A stretch of 64,000 nucleotides of DNA from Anolis carolinensis (lineage: Eukaryota). The notes beneath the pieces are model-generated. The model did no database searches and was not told the origin of the DNA. It saw only the letters and a program-made list of their open reading frames with translations. The stretch is from contig NC_085845.1 in the NCBI RefSeq assembly GCF_035594765.1, positions 140,074,897 to 140,138,896 of the forward strand, written 5' to 3'. Positions within the stretch are counted from its first letter, which is position 1. Each line of letters opens with the position of its first letter. Made by a program: the position numbers and the translations under genes. Below, in pieces: positions 1 through 54,368 of this stretch.

Positions 1-2975
1 GGCCCAAAAGAAACAAAAACAATATATCAATAAAATAGAAGAAGGAAAAAAATTTACCAAACAAAAAGAGATAGAAGAACAATTTACTAAATACTATAAA
101 CTCCTATATGCCGATAAGAAAATCCCAAAAGAAAAACCAATACAATATATAGGGAAACAAAAGATAAACAAAGTTACGGAAGAGCAAAGAGAAATATTAA
201 ATGGGAAGATTAAAGAAGAGGAAATACAAGGAGCAATTAAAAACTTACCCAACAACAAGGCACCTGGGCCAGATGGCTTTACCTCAACATATTACAAAGT
301 CTTTATATTAAAGTCTATATATTAACAATACCTCTAAAAAAAGTAATGAACAGGGCATTAGAGGAAAGACAAATACCACATACATGGAAATTTGCAAATA
401 TAACCCTAATACCAAAGGAAAATACAGACAACACAAAGTTCAAGAACCTGATTATTGATTACAAAATTTTCACAAGTATATTAGCAACCAGACTAAAAGA
501 AATATTAATAAAACGGATTGACCAAGAAGACCAGAGAGGCTTTCTACCAGGTCGACACATTAAAGATAACATCAGGACAATCATAAACGCAATTGAACAT
601 TATGATAGAAATAAGCAAAAAGAAGTTGGCTTTCTCTTCCTTGATGCAGAGAAAGTCTTCAATAAAGTCAATTGGAGTTTCATAATAGAATTGTTGAAAG
701 AAATGGACACAGGTTACTATTTCATAAATGCCATTAAAGCCATCTATTCCCATCAATATGCAAATATTATAGTTAATGGTGAAACAACAAAAGAAATTAG
801 CCTACATAAAGGAACAAGGCAGGGCTGCCCCCTCTCTCCCTTGATTTTTATCATGACTTTGGAAGTCTTACTCACAAGAATAAGGAAAAATGAAGAACTA
901 AAGAGACTGAGGGTAAAAAAGGAAAATTATAAATAATGCGCGTTTGCAGATGACGTGGTATATATAATGGAAGATCCGGCAAACCAATGGAACCAATGGT
1001 GGAGTGAACTAGAAGCTTATGGAGAGGTGGCGGGACTTAAAATTAACAAAGAAAAAACTAAAATGCTAATAAAAAACACACCAAAGGAAAAGAAAGAAGA
1101 ATTAATGAAGAAGACAGGTATTAATATTGTAAGAAAAGTAAAATATCTGGGAATAGAGTTAACACCAAGCAATGCACAACTATTAAAAAATAACTATGAC
1201 AAAAAGTGGTCCAAAATTAAGGAAAAGATGAAACGATGGGGGAAACCTCTCCCTTTTAGGAAGAATAGCTGTGATAAAAATGCAAGTTTTACCAGAAGTA
1301 CTCTATCTGTTTCAGACAATCCCAATAATAAGATCCATAGTAACAATCAACAAATGGGAGAAAGACATAAGGAATTTCATATGGAATCACAAAAAATCAA
1401 GAATAAAACATCAAAATCTGAAGGATGACAGAAGACGAGGGGGACTGGGTCTACCAGATATACAACTCTATTATGAAGCTGCTGCATTAACATGGGTTAA
1501 GGACTGGGTAACACTGGACAAGAAGAAAATCCTCACCCTGGAAGGGGAAGATCTAAGGTGAGGCTGGCATGGCTATTTATGGAAAAGCAAAGTAAAAATA
1601 GTTTTTTGTTTTTTTTAGAAATCATGTCATAAGGGCCTCACTAATCAAAATATGGAATAAATATAAGGATACACTGTATACTAAACCACCCCATGTGGTT
1701 TTCTTCAAGCGAGGCGAACCATAGAAAAGAACTCCCCAGCGACAAATGGATAACATACAAACAACTGGTAATTATCAAAAATCAAGAGGTATAATTAAAA
1801 CTGCAAGAACAATTAAAGGAACTAGACCCTACTATAAACTGGCTAAGATACTGTCAAATTAACGAAGAATTTAAAGAAGATAATAAGAAAGGCTCTCAAA
1901 TCGAAGAAACATTCTGGGATAAGATATTGAAGATAGATAATAAACTAATAAGATTAATATACAAACAACTACTCACTTGGTCAATAGAGGAAGAACAAGT
2001 AAAGGAAGTGATGGTAAAGTGGGCCAGAGAAATAGGCCACACAATCAGTATGAGCCAGTGGGAAGAAATCTGGGCCAGAAAGCTAAAATATGCATATGCA
2101 GCCGAGAACAGAGAAAATTGGTTTAAAGTTTTTTACAGGTGGTACCTGACACCGAACAAAATAGCCAAATACAACAAAGGCAAGACTGACGGGAGGTGTT
2201 GGGAATGTGAGAAAAGTATTGGCACATTCATGCATATGTGGTGGGGATGCAATAAAGTGAAGAAATTCTGGTATGAGATACATAAAACAATAGGGAAAAT
2301 TCTACAAAAAACAACTAGAATTTAAACCAGAATGTTTCTTATTAGGTATAAACAACTCACAGCTAGACCAGAATACAGACAATATACTATTTTATCTCAC
2401 CACTGCCACCAGAATAACACTAGCCCAGATTTGGAAAACCAAAGAGTTACCTACGATTGAAAAATGGACCACCAAAGTTCTGGATATAATGAACATGGAT
2501 TTGCTAACGCAAAAACTGTCTCTGAATAGAGCACCAGCTAATAGAACAGATTGGAAAGTGCTGTTAGACTATTTACAAAGAGAAAAAAAATAATGATCTG
2601 TACAAAACTAGACTAAAGAGAGCCCCAAGGAATAATTCAAATAGATATACAGATATGTATATAAGGAAGAGAGAAAAGTAAAAAAGAAAAGAATCAAAGG
2701 AGTTGCTTGAAAGCTCTGGAAGTAATAGAATATTATAGCAACACGACCTCATGTGTGGTGGGTGGATCTCCCATTCCTTTTTTTTCTTTTGCCTTTTTTG
2801 TTTTTTATTTTGTTTTTGTTTTGTTTTTTGTTGCCTTTTCTTCTCTTCCTTTCCTACTTTTGCTACTATGCATTGTTCACCCACTTTTAATGTAAGATAT
2901 AAAACAATATTGGAGAAAAAAAATAAGTTGAACAAAGTTGCTTGTAGAGTATAAATAAAAATGAATATATATAAA
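1..2975 (+). mobile_element. L1-clade LINE, 3' part of ORF2 (RT plus C-terminal CCHC zinc knuckle) and 3' UTR; inactivated
   Basis: KAPGPDGFT near 257-283; RT motifs QRGFLPGR, LDAEKVF, GTRQGCPLSP, FADD (immediately after an in-frame TAA at 934-936) and KYLGI; GGLGLP; CWEC...HMWWGC near 2197-2250. Several stops and frameshifts. T-rich 3' UTR and A-rich end near 2955-2975. Runs off the 5' edge of the window. Confidence 0.95.
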
Positions 2976-4124: not shown

Positions 4125-4604
4125 AAGAATTGAAACAGAAGCATCTAAGACATTTTAGAGAGATTAGGAAAGATTTGTTGTTTTGGAGCATTTCAAGCTG
4201 TGTTTTTTTAAAATGTAACATAATCTGTAATTATCTGGGGTGGGAGGGGGGGTGAGTGGGCTGAGGTGATTGACAACAACAACTGGCAACTGTAGGCTGT
4301 CCCCCCCCCCCTTATCAGCCAATCAGAAGAAGAACCAAGAAGAAAGCCAATCACACAGCTTTCTACAAAGTTGATTTTCTCCCCATAGCGTCTGTGTTTC
4401 TAATATTTGTGGAGTTACAATCACCTGATACTTGCTGGCTGTCTTGGCCATGTTTTTAACCTGCCTGAGGAGTTTGTGTTCTGCAAGGCACCGGTGGACT
4501 GCATGCTCCTGGAGGAACCAGACCAGATCCTTCTTGGGCAGTTCCTTGCTCCGCAGCTGCTCAGGGCTTCAGTACCTCAAGGGTAGCTCCATGATAACAG
4601 TAGT

Positions 4605-11103: not shown

Positions 11104-12749
11104 TGTCGCGCCCGTCAATTGGGGTTCTAAATTTGCAACCCCCTTTCTTCAGAAGCTTTGCACTCTGGTTAAGGAGAATACCCAACACAAACTGTCTCTT
11201 TAACAAAGAATAGGTTTATATAAAGGTATTTACAAATACAGCAGAGTCCTTGGATTTTTCAGCTGCTTCCACACAATGAATAGTAAACAATAAAGTCCTT
11301 ATCTTCAGCAAGATGCCACAGTCTTGTTCTTCAGACGTTGTAGCAACAATACACCTCCGGCAACTCCAACTTGGACAAAACAGCTCCAGCAACTCCACCT
11401 CAGCATTCAATCTCAGGTGCCAAACTCCAACCTCGAGCTCCAAACTCTCTCCAACCTTCAAACCTCAAGCACCAACCTTGAGTAACATAATGTACTTAGT
11501 CTCTACTTGTAGTACTCCATCTCTAACAGGTGGCTTGATTGTTGCTGGCCATACAATAAATAGTAAACAATAAAGTCCTTATCTTCAGCAAGATGCCACA
11601 GTCTTGTTCTTCAGACGTTGTAGCAACAATACACCTCCGGCAACTCCAACTTGGACAAAACAGCTCCAGCAACTCCACCTCAGCATTCAATCTCAGGTGC
11701 CAAACTCCAACCTCGAGCTCCAAACTCTCTCCAACCTTCAAACCTCAAGCACCAACCTTGAGTAACATAATGTACTTAGTCTCTACTTGTAGTACTCCAT
11801 CTCTAACAGGTGGCTTGATTGTTGCTGGCCATACAATAAATAGTAAACAATAAAGTCCTTATCTTCAGCAAGATGCCACAGTCTTGTTCTTCAGACGTTG
11901 TAGCAACAATACACCTCCGGCAACTCCAACTTGGACAAAACAGCTCCAGCAACTCCACCTCAGCATTCAATCTCAGGTGCCAAACTCCAACCTCGAGCTC
12001 CAAACTCTCTCCAACCTTCAAACCTCAAGCACCAACCTTGAGTAACATAATGTACTTAGTCTCTACTTGTAGTACTCCATCTCTAACAGGTGGCTTGATT
12101 GTTGCTGGCCATACAATAAATAGTAAACAATAAAGTCCTTATCTTCAGCAACATGCCACAGTCTTGTTCTTCAGACGTTGTAGCAACAATACACCTCCGG
12201 CAACTCCAACTTGGACAAAACAGCTCCAGCAACTCCACCTCAGCATTCAATCTCAGGTGCCAAACTCCAACCTCGAGCTCCAAACTCTCTCCAACCTTCA
12301 AACCTCAAGCACCAACCTTGAGTAACATAATGTACTTAGTCTCTACTTGTAGTACTCCATCTCTAACAGGTGGCTTGATTGTTGCTGGCCATACAATAAA
12401 TAGTAAACAATAAAGTCCTTATCTTCAGCAAGATGCCACAGTCTTGTTCTTCAGACGTCGTAGCAACAATACACCTCCGGCAACTCCAACTTGGACAAAA
12501 CAGCTCTAGCAACTCCACCTCAGCATTCAATCTCAGGTGCCAAACTCCAACCTCGAGCTCCAAACTCTCTCCAACCTTCAAACCTCAAGCACCAACCTCC
12601 TACCTTGAGTAACATAATGTACTTAGTCTCTACTAGTAGTACTCCATCTCTAACAGGTGGCTTGATTGTTGCTGGCCATACAGTGATTAGTAATGATCCT
12701 TACAATCATTTACCCATTTTCAGTTAAGAAATGATATAAACCTCTGACA
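11104..12749 (-). mobile_element. Solo LTR (TG...CA) containing a 5x 280-bp tandem array
   Basis: Termini TGTC...GACA; perfect 5-bp TSD tcatg (11099-11103, 12750-12754). Orientation inferred from strand composition only. Confidence 0.85.
11279..12682. repeat. 280-bp tandem repeat, 5 near-identical copies
   Basis: Units start at 11279, 11559, 11839, 12119 and 12399. Identical ORF calls recur every 280 bp. Only a few variants, mostly in copy 5. Confidence 0.97.
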
Positions 12750-26777: not shown

Positions 26778-27958
26778 TGTCATAGACAGAACGCCACCAA
26801 ATAGAGTACAACACAGTTTATTGAGGTTACAGAACTAAAAAATGCCCGTAGGAAACAAAGGACTAGGCAAACACTTGTCTTCAGTGTGAAAAGTAACAGA
26901 AACAGCTTCGTTTGAATTAAAACGGTTCGAAAGAATAAACCGGATTTAACAGGAGTTTAATCCGGATTAAATCAAAAGTGCTTACTTCAGCCTGGCAATT
27001 TAAACAAGCAAAAGTTGGTAAACAGAGGTCAAAATGAACACAAAAAACTGGCAGCAGATTCCTCTCTGCTACTCAAAAGCTACAGATGAGTAACTCAGGC
27101 TGTTTACTCTTCCGTGCAACGAGCGAAATCCAGGTCCAGGCACATCAATCAGGGTAACGGCGGTCAGCAGGGTCCCAATCCGGTCCAAGGTCGAAAGCCA
27201 AGCGCAGACGTCTAAAGTTCCACAAGTTCCACCGATAGCCACAGAAGGGATAGTCCAAGGTCGTAGTCAGTCAGTCAGTCCAGCGTCAATCCAGAGTAGG
27301 TAATTAATGTCCGTCAAAAAGACGACGGAGGTCCAAGCTATCAAGATTAAACACAAGTTGCACAGAAAAACCCCACACAGTTCCTCCCGCCGTCTATGCC
27401 CAGTGTCCTTGGTAACTTACGTATCCAGCAACGAATCACACCCGTCTTCAGGAAGTTCCCCAACAAGAGCCCAAGCGTTCGTCCAGATTACCTTGCCCAA
27501 CGCAATTAGCCATTGATCCTAAACCCCATTTTATCCCAGTTCATAACTCCTCATCGCTGTCAGCTGCTATCCTAATTCCAGGTGCCTCATCATCATCATC
27601 CTCATCAGAACTAAAACACCTTTGACTACGCCCCACAGCATCCCCAGCTGTGGATCCCGCTCCATCCCTCCAGCCCGTCCATGGGTCTGATCCTGCAACC
27701 CGCCAATCGTCTCCCATACTATCATTGCCGGTGACACCCAAATCCTCCCTTACACGAGTCCACTCCATGTCATCCTCCTCTGAGCTAACCATCTCTTCCT
27801 CCATTCGCTCGGTAAAACCCTCAAATGAGTCTTCATCTGTTGGTTCTGCAAATAAGTCCCGGAGCCGTTTCCTTTCGCGCTCCTCAAAAGAGTCTGACTC
27901 TCGAGGAGTCTTACGACCCCGTCTCCTAGTATCGGAGCCAGAAGGCTCAACCATAACA
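26778..27958 (-). mobile_element. Solo LTR (1181 bp), same family as 36021-37256
   Basis: Minus strand TGTTATGG...CTATGACA; TSD tcacc / ccacc; AATAAA near its 3' end; colinear with the second copy. Confidence 0.93.
27541..27954 (-). CDS. LTR U3-encoded acidic protein (137 aa) with an FxGF motif; probable retroelement Pol/integrase tail or accessory ORF
   Basis: ATG at LTR position 5; intact and homologous to 36025-36453 with mainly synonymous differences. The upstream MEFQVYTINLG of the ORF track is flanking host DNA. Confidence 0.65.
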   Translation of the reverse strand: MVEPSGSDTRRRGRKTPRESDSFEERERKRLRDLFAEPTDEDSFEGFTERMEEEMVSSEEDDMEWTRVREDLGVTGNDSMGDDWRVAGSDPWTGWRDGAGSTAGDAVGRSQRCFSSDEDDDDEAPGIRIAADSDEEL

Positions 27959-31578: not shown

Positions 31579-31888
31579 GGTAAGAGGTAAAGATTTTCCC
31601 CTGACATTAAGTCTATTCTGGGGGTTGATGCTCATCTCAATTTCTAAGCCGAAGAGCCAGTGTTGTCTGTAGACACCTCCAAGGTCACATGGCCAGCATG
31701 ACTACATGGAGCGCTGTTACCTTCCCATCTTTTGATCTACTCACATTTGCATATTTTTGAACTGCTAGGTTGGCAGAAGCTGGGGCTGACAGCGGGAGCT
31801 CACTCCACTCCCCGGATTCGAACCACTGACCTTTCAGTCAACAATTTCAGCAGCTCAGCAGTTATCTATGGAGCCACTGGGGGCTCCA
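31579..31888 (-). mobile_element. Sauria SINE
   Basis: Reverse complement of the Sauria consensus; 11-bp TSD tagataaggga (31568-78, 31889-99). Confidence 0.93.
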
Positions 31889-31915
31889 TAGATAAGGGAC
31901 ACTCAATTTGGATTT

Positions 31916-33072
31916 ACCCGGGATCTTTACGTCCCTTTCTGAAGGTTCTCAAGGCCAAGGTGTTCCCCATTGCTTTGTATGGAGCTGAAATATGGGGGGA
32001 TCAAGATCTGGCATTGGTAGAAAGATTCCAACTTCGCCACTTGAAAATTGGCTTAGGTGTGGAGAGATCATCCCTGTCAGCTGCTGTGAGAGCAGAGATG
32101 GGGGTACCCCCAATTTCCACAGTAATCCTGAAGAGACAGATCAATTGGTGGTACAAAATAAGACAAATGTAACCACATAGACTCCCAGCCATATGCCTAT
32201 TAGAACAAGAAAACCACAAAGAGTGGTCATCATGGCTAAGCAGACTTGGTCACACGGTCAGCAAGATAGGTTTTGCCCCACACGAGCTAATAAATTTCGG
32301 GGCTAAAGTGTGCTCAATTGTATACCAAAGAGCCCTTGACATTGCTGCACAAAATGATCTTATGATCATAGCGCAAGCTAGAGCCACTCCATACCTGGCC
32401 AAATTTAAATGCAATGTGGGCATGGAAACTTACCTCTTCTTGACTCTTCCATTATATATTAGAAAACTTTTTACTCGGGCTAGATTCGATCAGCTCGACA
32501 TTAAGTCCAAGCTAGGAAGACATCAGAATATCCCCTATATGCAGAGAACCTGTGGGTGTCGTGAGGTAGATGCAGAAGTGGAGGACTCAGAACATTTCTT
32601 CTTAAAATGCCCCTACTGCACCAGGATTCGATCTCTCTATTTAGACCCTCTGCTGGAGAATCATACTCACTTAGAGAATGAGGAGAAATTGCATATCTTT
32701 CTACAGGGTTCAGATAAAAACTCAATTTTAAAACTGGCCCCTTTTACACAAAAAGCGCTGGCCATTCGTGAGAAGATGAAAGCTGAGAGCTGATACATTA
32801 TTGCCACTAACAAAATCCAAACTTAAAATTTACTATGGACAAGACACTTGTTTTACTTACCCCTGTCCTTGTTCAAACCTTTCCTTAGGAAATTACTAAT
32901 TTTAACCTTTTTACTCTGTATTTGTCTAGGAGCGGGTTATTAGGCTGCAGGTCGGGATGTTTTGTATCTTTACATGGTTTTATTGTGCGTAAGTGTGTAC
33001 GTATTGTATGTTTTACATGTTTTGATATGGTCAAAAGTGACTAATTAATAAAGAATTGTTGTTGTTGCTTCT
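31916..33072 (+). mobile_element. RTEX-like LINE 3' fragment
   Basis: VFPIALYGAEIWG and C-terminal RTCGC...EVEDSEHFFLKCPY; (TTG)n tail after AATAAA; 13-bp TSD tcaatttggattt (31903-15, 33073-85); internal stop at 32170-72. Confidence 0.85.
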
Positions 33073-35722: not shown

Positions 35723-36020
35723 TTTAGCCCCCAGTGGCACTGTGGGTTGAACCACTGAGCTGCTGAACTTGCTGATCGAAAGGTCGGCGGTTCAAATCTG
35801 GGGAGCTGGGTGAACTCCTTCTGTTACCCCCAGCTTCTGCCAACCTAACAGTTCGAAAACATGCAAATGTGAGTAGATCAATAGGTTTCACTACGGCAGG
35901 AAGGTAACGGTGCTCCATGCAGTCATTTTGGCCACATTACCTTGGCGGTGTCTACAGACAACGCTGGCTCTTTGGCTTAGAAATGAAGATGAGCAACAAC
36001 CCCCAGAGTTGGACATGACT

Positions 36021-37256
36021 TGTTATGGTTGAGCCTTCGGGCTCCGATAATAGAAGAAGGGGGTATAAGACTCCTCGAGAGTCAGACTCTTTCGAGGAGC
36101 GTGAACGAAAACGGCTCCGGGATTTGTTTACAGACCCGACAGATGAGGACTCATTTGAGGGTTTTTCTGAGGGTTTGGAGGAAGAGATGGCCAGCTCGGA
36201 GGAGGATGACATGGAATGGACTCGTGTGAGGGAGGATTTGGGTGTTGGGGAAACAGGCAATGAAAGCATGGGAGGTGAGTGGCGGGTTGCAGGATCAGAC
36301 CCATGGACTGGCTGGAGGGATGGAGCGGGATCCACAGCTGGGGATGCTGTGGGGCGTAGTCAAAGGTGCTTTAGCTCTGATGAGGATGATGAGTTTGGGG
36401 CGCCTGGAATTGGGATGGCAGCTGACAGCGATGATGAGCTTGAACTGGGATAAATTGGGGTTTGGGATCAATGTCTAATTGCGTTGGGCAAGGTAATCTG
36501 GACGGACGCTTGGGCTTTTGTTGGGGAACTTCCTGAAGACGGGTGTGATTCGTTGCTGGATACGTAAGTTTACCAAGGACACTGGGCATCGACGGCGGGA
36601 GGAACTGTGCGGGGTTTTTCTCTGTGCAACTTGTGTTTAATCTCAATAGCTTGGACCTCCGTCATCTTTTTGACGGGCAATACCTACTCACACTGGATTG
36701 ACGCTGGACTGACTGACTTCGATTCTGGATTATCCCTTCTGCTGCTTATCGGTGAGACCTTTGGATTCCTAGACGACTACGTTTGGCTATTGACCTCTGG
36801 ACCGGATTGGGACCCTGCTGACTGCCGTTTCCCTGACTGCTGAGCCTGGACCTGTATATCGTTGGCTGTTGAACCTTAAATTGAATCCTGACTACGACCA
36901 CGTTTTCCTTCGCTGCAGCGAGGAATAAACAAGCCTGGTTTAGTCTCCAGCTGTTTCTGAGTAGCAGAGAGGAATCTGCTACCAGTCTGTTGTTTACATT
37001 CTGACTCCTGTTGATCCTCCTTTGTTTGCATTGTTTGCCAGGCTGAAGTAAGCACTTTTGATTTAATCCGGATTATACTTCTGTTTAACCCGGTTTTTCT
37101 CTTTGAGTTGTTTAAGCTCAATCTGAGTTGTTTTTGTGTTACCTATCACACTGAAGTCAAGTGTTTGCCCTGTTCTTTGTCTCCTATGGGCATTTTTAGT
37201 TCTGTAATCTCAATAAACTGAGTTTTGCTTTACTCACTGGCGTTCTGTCTATGACA
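36021..37256 (+). mobile_element. Solo LTR (1236 bp)
   Basis: TGTTATGG...CTATGACA; perfect 5-bp TSD tgact (36016-20, 37257-61); AATAAA at 37212-17. Confidence 0.95.
36025..36453 (+). CDS. LTR U3-encoded acidic protein (142 aa) with a basic NLS-like patch and an LxxLF-acidic-FxGF motif
   Basis: Intact ORF from LTR position 5; homologous to 27541-27954; the only internal indel is an in-frame 6-nt event. Confidence 0.65.
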   Translation: MVEPSGSDNRRRGYKTPRESDSFEERERKRLRDLFTDPTDEDSFEGFSEGLEEEMASSEEDDMEWTRVREDLGVGETGNESMGGEWRVAGSDPWTGWRDGAGSTAGDAVGRSQRCFSSDEDDEFGAPGIGMAADSDDELELG

Positions 37257-52496: not shown

Positions 52497-53974
52497 TACC
52501 TAAAGTATATCCTGAACTGAATATCTAATACATGTGTTGTGGCACATGGTTTTACCCATGTACCTCTTGTCTCATGGAATAATGTTTTGGGGAGTTTTTT
52601 TTAAAAAAAGAATTATTTTGAAAGAATAGTTAATTAATTTGAAAATGTAATTTACTACTACACGAAAACATACATATTCTGAAATGGATGTACTCACAAA
52701 GACTGAAGTGTGTTTCAGGAAACCATTATTTACATTTGAGGAAGCATGACAAATCCCTTCCACTTCTCCCAGTTGGCCACAGTGAAAGATATTTCTGTCC
52801 GTTTCAGGAAATGTTTATTCACCTTTTGGAATCAAAACAGATTCCTTCCAAATCAGTCAGCTAGGCTGAACAACATCTCCTCTGTTGCCAAATTGCTAAT
52901 CTCAAAAGAAAATCATAACATGAATTCAAAGTTGTCTAAATAACTCCAGGTGCCTAAATAGTTTAATTCATTTTAATCTTGTCAGTAATTTAATCCCATT
53001 ATCACACTCAGTTTTTGTAGATTTTAGCTGCATTTTTAAAAATTGTAAACCACATTGAGTCTCAATTTCTGGAAAAAAAAAAGTGATATATAAGCGAACT
53101 GATTCATAACTGAAAAATGAGAGATGATTATAAGAAAAGTGGAAGACTTTGTTGTTTTTACACAATCACTGCTGTTGTGTGGTAGGCTTCCAAGAATATT
53201 TATTAGATATTTGTATTGGGTGTGGAATCTCTGCATAAAAGAGTTGGCATAGTACATGTTAGTTGGGCAGCACTACATTCTTATAAGAACGTTTACTCTA
53301 GTTTCTTTTGGTATTAATTCCCACTCATTTCCCCAGAGAATAAGAAAATGCCTTCAGATGATGGAGTACTTTATTCTCCATTAGTTTAGAAGCCCAGTAG
53401 TATATTATAATTTACAATGTACAATGATAATAAAGTTATTCTGTTTTATTCATATGTTCTAAAACAGACATTGTGAGAAAGCCCTGACTTAAATTCAGTT
53501 TGAAGACTAACACTAAGACTAACCCTACCAGCAAAAATCTGTAGGTCAGACTAGATGAGACAATGATAATAATCTATCTTTAATAAGATTGCAGTTTCAT
53601 TCGCGTGCAAAGCAAAAGTTATAGGTGCTCTCACATGTGCACAACATCAACAGGAGCTCATCCTGTTGATGTTGGGCACCTTCAAGTAATTTCTGACTTA
53701 TGGCAAGTGTATGGCAAATCTATCAGAGTATGTTTTTGACATAATTTGTAGGCTTGCTCAAATAATTCGATTTCCCCGTTACCCGTTATTAATTCGTTAT
53801 TTTCGTTTGTTTTGAAGCAATATTGAAGCCTTGATTGTCCACACGTCTGGATATCCGGTTTCGAATCGCTAGAGGCAGTTTTTTCTTATTTCGTCGTTTT
53901 TTTCGTTAGGAAAAAAAAGCTTTTGCAAATCACCCAAACTCCCACCATTCAGGCCCTTTCCTTTTGCCCCTCAG

Positions 53975-54085
53975 CAAAAGGGGCGTCACGGGCTCAGCCA
54001 ATGGGAGGGGGCGAGGGGGAAGGAGGCCGAGGAGGAGGAGGAAGACGGAGGGGAAAAATGGCCGCCGCCGCCTCGCCTCAGCTCA
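53975..54085 (+). promoter_or_regulatory. CpG-island-type promoter cassette inside the hAT element
   Basis: CGTCA at 53984-88, AGCCAATGGG (CCAAT 53998-54002), GC box at about 54008-17, YY1-like AAAATGGCCGCC overlapping ATG-GCC-GCC-GCC. Confidence 0.5.
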
Positions 54086-54089
54086 GGCC

Positions 54090-54368
54090 TGATACTCAGA
54101 GGTTTCCACGTCTGTGCGAAGCTAGGCAAGTGGGGTTTATATATCTGTGGAAGGTCCAGGGTGGGAGAAAGAACTCTTGTCTGTGGGAGGCAAGTGTGAA
54201 TGTTGCAATTGGTCACCTTGATTAGCATTGAATAGCCTTGCAGCTTCAAAGCCTGGCTGCTTCCTACCTGGGGGAATCCTTTGTTGGGAGGTATTAGCTG
54301 GCCCTGATTGTTTCCTGTCTGGAATTCCCATTTTCTGGGTGTTGTTCTTTTACTGTCCTGATTTTAGC
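54090..54368 (-). mobile_element. Penelope-like element 3' UTR/pLTR fragment
   Basis: Minus strand ctaaaatcaggacagtaaa...gggaattccagacaggaaacaatcagggccagcta...gatatataaaccccacttgcctag recalls the Anolis Penelope consensus. Confidence 0.7.

Follow-up and report, generated by a model that had tools for sequence, protein, structure and literature searches.

The 64,000-nucleotide stretch of the Anolis carolinensis genome analysed here (the window) holds two solo long terminal repeats (LTRs) of one Ty3/Gypsy retrotransposon family of chromovirus lineage, each with an open reading frame (ORF) in its U3 region. The first, copy A, occupies 36021-37256 on the plus strand (1236 bp), exactly the interval given in a preliminary description of this DNA. 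It starts with TGTTATGG and ends with CTATGACA; the reverse complement of this end, TGTCATAG, pairs with TGTTATGG as a terminal inverted repeat. A perfect 5-bp target-site duplication (TSD), TGACT, flanks the element (36016-36020 and 37257-37261, plus strand), and the insertion splits a short interspersed element (SINE)-like repeat, presumably a Sauria SINE, that runs from 35729 to 36020 on the plus strand and resumes past 37256. The two halves of this repeat are contiguous in its other copies within the window. Because no internal retrotransposon sequence lies beside 36021-37256, copy A is a solo LTR. Copy B (26778-27958, minus strand, 1181 bp, TSD GGTGG/GGTGA) is 81.7% identical to it overall. 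The TG...CA ends and short TSDs of these LTRs are as expected of Ty3/Gypsy LTR retrotransposons.

The U3 open reading frame is selected as a protein

As previously noted, the LTR opens T-GTT-ATG and its frame is open to the LTR edge at 36021. The U3-encoded stretch (36022-36453, plus strand) begins with a Val codon at 36022 and continues from an ATG at 36025 (LTR position 5) for 142 codons to a TAA at 36451-36453. The corresponding ORF of copy B (27541-27954, minus strand) encodes 137 aa. Shuffling the bases of the first 436 nt of the LTR leaves this frame open in 0.08% of cases. The two ORFs differ by 20 non-synonymous and 27 synonymous changes, giving non-synonymous and synonymous divergences of 0.065 (dN) and 0.384 (dS), an omega of 0.17 and a Fisher p of 1.4e-8; by codon position, the differences number 10, 6 and 31. 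Neutral simulation predicts 32 amino-acid changes where 17 are observed (0 of 20,000 runs were as low), and the coding stretch common to both copies contains a single indel, of 6 nt. That both frames stayed open says little by itself, as this happens in 19% of cases under neutrality. The U3 ORF is thus real and under purifying selection as a protein. An antisense open frame at 35955-36359 we take to be a mirror of this coding frame.

Asp and Glu together make up 28% of the encoded tail, and neither U3 ORF matches a Pfam family. AlphaFold returned a mean pLDDT of 56 and a pTM of 0.20 for the window tail, low values that a shallow alignment can also produce. The disorder expected by the preliminary description is accordingly predicted throughout, except for two short helices at residues 23-36 and 57-71, the second of which coincides with a conserved acidic stretch containing Trp65 (36193-36237, plus strand). 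Residues 93-121 (36301-36387) are highly conserved in the family, reading DPW..WRDG.GSTAGDAVGRSQ.C.

The reading frame extends Gypsy pol into the LTR

Among 800 candidates, seven longer relatives of the U3 ORF were matched, all labelled Anolis carolinensis. Four of these (P0002, P0004, P0006 and P0007) pass from the integrase SH3 domain directly into the U3 ORF, with the junction FVRGDSV-M in every case; P0002 is the closest, at 94% identity to the window ORF, and the tail of P0007 diverges from the others in its last part. P0006 and P0007, which represent 46 and 75 member sequences, are near-complete pol proteins with Pfam matches to reverse transcriptase (RT), RNase H (RH), and the zinc finger, core and SH3_Tf2-1 domains of integrase (IN). 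P0009 lacks the tail. In the other three matches, P0003, P0005 and P0008, the U3 ORF is fused to unrelated non-LTR sequence; the x-Val-Met edge is visible in them, and we set them aside as gene-model artefacts or read-ins that give no evidence of pol fusion. The codons of the FVRGDSV-M junction are compatible with a purine-rich polypurine tract (PPT) followed by T-GTT-ATG. Gene models therefore show that the U3 ORF encodes the C-terminal ~140 residues of pol in an Anolis Ty3/Gypsy family of chromovirus lineage, as was proposed when the ORF was read as an integrase tail continued through the PPT.

The same PPT-to-LTR register, with unrelated tails, is found in the sister families P0010, P0044, P0059, P0180, P0183, P0185 and P0186, where the junction reads G-D-S/G-V-M/V or V-D-V before an LTR-encoded tail begins. 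Read-through is therefore a trait of the clade. The GG(S/T)V junction anticipated for such elements does not occur here; these families read RGDSV, GDGV or VDV instead. Homologues of the tail itself were confined to its own family in a search of 1.84 billion representative sequences (three proteins at E <= 1e-30, two of them by the tail).

The LTR also carries putative transcription signals, conserved between the copies, that bear on whether the ORF might be expressed separately. A TATA-like GATAAA at 36449-36454 (plus strand), a putative promoter element, overlaps the stop codon and stands where the best-conserved section of the LTR begins (LTR nt 401-600, 93-98% identical between copies). 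Downstream of it, two splice-donor-like sites are found at 36491-36569 (plus strand; AGGTAA at 36491, GTAAGT at 36564), and both copies share a putative poly(A) signal, AATAAA, at 37212-37217 (plus strand), whose position implies a very short U5. A bacterial promoter scan was uninformative.

Instead of, or besides, the integrase fusion, translation of a separate accessory protein could begin at the ATG at LTR position 5 on a subgenomic RNA made by splicing, an option raised at the outset. This ATG has G at -3 and +4, as the Kozak rule favours, the two conserved donor-like sites lie downstream of the TATA-like box, and a stand-alone 137-aa protein, P0021, exists. P0021, however, is accounted for by gene prediction on a solo LTR, and the ATG lies inside the terminal inverted (att) repeat formed by TGTTATGG and TGTCATAG, ~425 nt upstream of the TATA-like box. 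Relatives P0059, P0038, P0075 and P0170 read through without a Met, and the pre-LTR sequence, judged by its codons, appears purine-rich and unlike a splice acceptor. We do not favour this explanation and regard it as very improbable.

Because reverse transcription copies the U3 of the 3′ LTR into both LTRs, the ORF rides along in solo LTRs as a passenger, and at the level of gene models the purifying selection we observe belongs to the replicating lineage. The earlier suggestion that every solo LTR preserves the element's targeting module thus holds for the DNA only: within the LTR, the ORF precedes the TATA-like box, and it lacks the integrase.

A chromodomain-less family among chromoviruses

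The RT-RNase H-integrase order assigned by Pfam in P0006 and P0007 is that of Ty3/Gypsy and rules out BEL and Copia, and together with SH3_Tf2-1 it answers the question of RT class left by the preliminary description: the elements are of the Tf1/sushi chromovirus type. They carry the GPY/F-SH3 signature and group with chromodomain elements. In integrase trees built first from 51 of 284 proteins and then from 26 selected rows, the family falls on a long branch among chromodomain-bearing squamate elements, sister to P0010 from Podarcis (support 95/92 with 51 rows and 83/95 with 26).

P0010, the nearest of the Tf1/sushi-type vertebrate chromoviruses, shares with the Anolis family the RT-RH-IN order, SH3_Tf2-1 and the PPT-to-LTR register. 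It differs in having a chromodomain with an intact aromatic cage between SH3 and PPT, and an unrelated LTR-encoded tail without FxGF. The stretch between SH3 and the PPT is only ~30 residues long in the Anolis family, and neither Pfam Chromo nor a custom chromodomain hidden Markov model (HMM) finds a chromodomain. The family is therefore a chromodomain-less derivative and not a typical chromovirus. Three further Anolis proteins, P0180, P0183 and P0186, combine an intact chromodomain with an LTR-encoded tail in which DEEENLGF resembles an incomplete FxGF.

A candidate LEDGF/HRP2-type motif in the tail

Residues 23-47 of the tail read FEERERKRLRDLFTDPTDEDSFEGF. Within them, a predicted anchor helix (residues 23-36; 36091-36132, plus strand) includes a basic RKR and ends in L34-F35; AlphaFold assigns pLDDT 79 to residues 21-30. 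F35 is followed by an 8-residue linker with four D/E and three S/T, and then by F44-E-G-F47 (36127-36165, plus strand; 27852-27814 in copy B). F35, F44, G46 and F47 are invariant in all eight family sequences, and between the two window copies residues 23-47 show seven synonymous-only codon changes against two amino-acid changes.

This layout resembles the TND-interacting motif (TIM; TND, TFIIS N-terminal domain), described as a helix that bears a hydrophobic anchor, followed by an acidic linker 8-16 residues long and an optional FxGF (PMC9987994). On predicted structure, the tail has the helix with its hydrophobic anchor and the disordered context, the latter in keeping with the lack of a Pfam family; the acidic linker and FxGF are present in the sequence. 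All known partners of LEDGF and HRP2 require FxGF; these two H3K36me readers tether ligands of their integrase-binding domain (IBD) to H3K36me2/3 chromatin and steer lentiviral integration (PMC9987994). The consensus is S/E-x-F-x-G-F (PMC7337902); two residues before FxGF, both window copies have D, and P0007 and P0021 have E. An S-to-D mimic in DPF3a raised HRP2 binding (PMC7337902), and JIL-1 uses DFxGF (10.1101/624023).

We tested the resemblance by PDB searches. With the whole 137-aa tail of P0021 as query, the sole match among 177,635 sequences was 6EMO, the complex of the LEDGF IBD with JPO2 M1 (E 1.6), and the alignment falls on the motif; counted by eye, 11 of 15 residues are identical for P0021 and 7 of 15 for the window copy. 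Three PDB sequences matched a profile built from eight motif segments of retroelements: 6EMO, 2MSR (a KMT2A peptide) and adiponectin, the last of which we treat as chance.

A true TIM might instead serve another TND partner (TFIIS, ELOA, MED26, PNUTS or IWS1), or help the element to stay on chromatin, enter the nucleus or evade silencing rather than select its sites. TIMs of one layout do bind several TNDs, but FxGF is described as the feature specific to LEDGF/HRP2 recognition (PMC9987994), and the motif stands at the integrase C-terminus, the site of putative chromovirus targeting domains (PMC3059260). We consider such an alternative role unlikely.

Recurrence of the motif in a second squamate clade

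We surveyed 263 post-SH3 tails from the 284 proteins for the pattern F-x8-10-FxGF. Twelve tails match: four from the Anolis family, seven from a Podarcis clade, and P0096. We regard the P0096 match as chance; its FxGF, like that of P0123, falls in sequence that has no relation to a retroelement tail, and neither was taken as a motif. The Podarcis clade comprises P0170, P0171, P0173, P0174 and P0177 (Podarcis muralis) with P0038 and P0075, and contains ten motifs, three proteins having two. Here the motifs follow a degenerate chromodomain, are spaced F-x8-9-FxGF and are succeeded by further LTR-encoded tail; wherever a PPT signature was seen (five of six checked), they lie upstream of it. S or E stands two residues before FxGF in nine of the ten, and the motif of P0171 is very similar to the DPF3a peptide given in PMC7337902.

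All seven Podarcis-clade proteins keep at most one of the three cage aromatics, and all 11 motif-bearing tails of the squamate clades have either at most one cage aromatic or no chromodomain. Conversely, the pattern occurs in 1 of 170 intact-cage tails (P0096, which is not acidic), a set in which only 61 tails reach at least 150 residues and many are gene-model fusions. The different position of the motif in the two clades, together with its unalignable flanks, suggests two origins; a formal test did not establish independent origin, as a single origin was not rejected (approximately unbiased test, p 0.123, 26 selected rows). The first motif is followed in both clades by an acidic stretch that ends in Trp (SSEEDDMEW at 36193-36237 of the window; EEESDW in P0038, P0170 and P0174), which may be another binding element or may reflect shared ancestry.

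These counts also bear on whether the tail could be a selected but generic acidic extension, serving solubility, nucleic-acid mimicry, chaperone-like activity or an unnamed partner, with its likeness to FxGF ligands coincidental. The 28% acidic content would fit such a role, motif-less read-through tails are common in sister families, FxGF alone appears in 0.5-9% of shuffled tails, and the PDB E-values exceed 1. The full pattern, by contrast, has a chance of 0.00008-0.011 per shuffled tail, and it turns up repeatedly, at a spacing of 8-9 residues, in tails that otherwise cannot be aligned, often in two copies and on both sides of the PPT, while being nearly absent from tails with an intact chromodomain. 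A coincidental likeness thus seems distinctly unlikely.

Proposed tethering and its precedents

Judging from sequence comparisons, we think it probable that the tail binds the IBD of LEDGF or HRP2 and biases integration to transcribed genes. In the gene models, pol runs through RT, RNase H, integrase (zinc finger, core and SH3), ~30 residues and the PPT into U3 of the 3′ LTR. Under this proposal, the helix-F, acidic linker and FxGF of the tail would bind the IBD (a TND) of LEDGF/p75 or HRP2, whose PWWP domain, reading H3K36me2/3, would tether the integration complex to transcribed gene bodies. A methyl-lysine-reading chromodomain would thereby have been exchanged for a sequence that imitates a short linear motif of the host, with a linker possibly tuned by CK2-type phosphorylation. 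The role of the tail as a targeting module is still inferred, as it was in the preliminary description, now with a specific candidate motif.

Several observations weigh against this proposal. Continuity with pol rests on predicted proteins rather than on the DNA of a full-length copy. Conservation extends beyond the motif, with no amino-acid change between copies in residues 93-121, and selection is therefore not specific to the motif. The window copies carry D, not S/E, two residues before FxGF. Two of five PDB queries found LEDGF ligands, with E-values of 1.4-2.3 that are not significant alone, and one of these, the eight-segment profile, is partly circular, having been built from segments picked for FxGF. 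The window protein, its 30-aa motif segment and a three-tail profile retrieved no LEDGF ligand from the PDB; the de novo designed helical proteins that these three queries matched were rejected as chance. The anticorrelation of chromodomain and motif rests on only two lineages, and hence on one or two events. Finally, the proteins of another Anolis family (P0011-P0015 and P0017) end 21 residues past the SH3 signature and have no chromodomain, tail or motif, so that loss of the chromodomain does not require the motif. That family offers a natural control for comparison of insertion sites. The two insertions in the window say nothing on targeting, because no host exon was identified near copies A and B by Pfam searches of 267 of 330 six-frame ORFs of at least 55 aa and a crude exon finder.

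The host factors with which integrase partners in targeting are known in a few yeast elements and retroviruses. In Ty5 (targeting domain-Sir4), Ty1 (AC40) and murine leukaemia virus (MLV; BET), a short motif in the disordered integrase C-terminus engages a host chromatin factor. The tethering principle proposed here is the same, with other element classes, motifs and partners, and to our knowledge the targeting motifs of Ty5, Ty1 and MLV are not LTR-encoded. Lentiviruses bind the IBD through folded integrase, not a linear FxGF motif. Their integrase-LEDGF system is nevertheless alike in combining a host tether, here a proposed one, with a bias to transcribed gene bodies (PMC9987994). Cellular TIMs (JPO2/CDCA7L, KMT2A, IWS1, PogZ, DPF3a and JIL-1) share the helix ending in F, the acidic Ser/Thr-rich linker of 8, FxGF and disorder, and JPO2 M1 has the same spacing as the window motif. 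The latter differs in being a candidate only, in lying in an LTR-encoded retrotransposon integrase and in its D at -2. PogZ, a known LEDGF partner, is itself a domesticated transposase.

Read-through into the LTR is already known, so the earlier interpretation was right and has precedent: in the group A CRM chromoviruses of plants, pol continues into the 3′ LTR and has there a putative targeting region other than a chromodomain (PMC3059260, PMC3605345). CRM group A (CR motif) thus resembles the Anolis family in its LTR-encoded pol end and in a putative targeting domain standing in place of a chromodomain. It differs in being plant-borne and centromere-targeted, with no partner identified in PMC3059260 and PMC3605345, whereas the window motif suggests a named family of partners and, as the target, active chromatin. 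Architecture is all that the CR motif and the window tail have in common; our searches, which included no direct comparison of the two, gave no sequence similarity.

What appears new is the candidate LEDGF-type motif in place of a chromodomain, which is directly testable. Titles and abstract openings of the literature searched, a set of limited coverage with few subscription journals, reported no FxGF or IBD-binding motif in a retrotransposon integrase, and no host partner of integrase targeting in a vertebrate LTR retrotransposon turned up in that literature. The analysis names a testable partner (LEDGF/HRP2) and a 25-residue motif, and predicts that sister families within one genome differ in insertion preference according to their chromodomain and motif state. 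More tentatively, with the odds slightly against so broad a reading, LTR retrotransposons may have reached HIV's chromatin tether by a different molecular route. Living intermediates would lead from an intact cage through a degenerate cage with one or two motifs to a motif without a chromodomain, and the solo LTRs would act as scattered ATG-initiated cassettes, each potentially encoding a peptide that competes for LEDGF. If the proposed tether is real, tethering to LEDGF would have arisen convergently in lentiviruses and lizard retrotransposons; the families compared here offer a natural series for the replacement of a targeting module.

Other features of the window

Elsewhere in the window, repeats predominate among the features we noted. 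The ORF2 of a non-LTR retrotransposon at 241-2325 (plus strand) is broken, its RVT_1 matches being spread over several frames, and a 280-bp unit is present in five tandem copies at 11269-12688, four of them at 99% identity. Inverted copies (86%) of a LINE-like 3′ end occur at 31702-32922 (plus strand) and 41220-41846 (minus strand), with open frames that have no Pfam match. An assembly gap falls at ~42540-42760, the window containing 180 N. At 4326-4568 (minus strand), a Pfam BTHB match (E 3e-15) in a degraded-looking frame is probably a pseudogene fragment, which we take to be FKBP3-like. A small CpG-rich island at 53801-54200, with a GC-rich leader and the start ATG-Ala-Ala-Ala-Ala, is possibly the first exon of a host gene on the plus strand.
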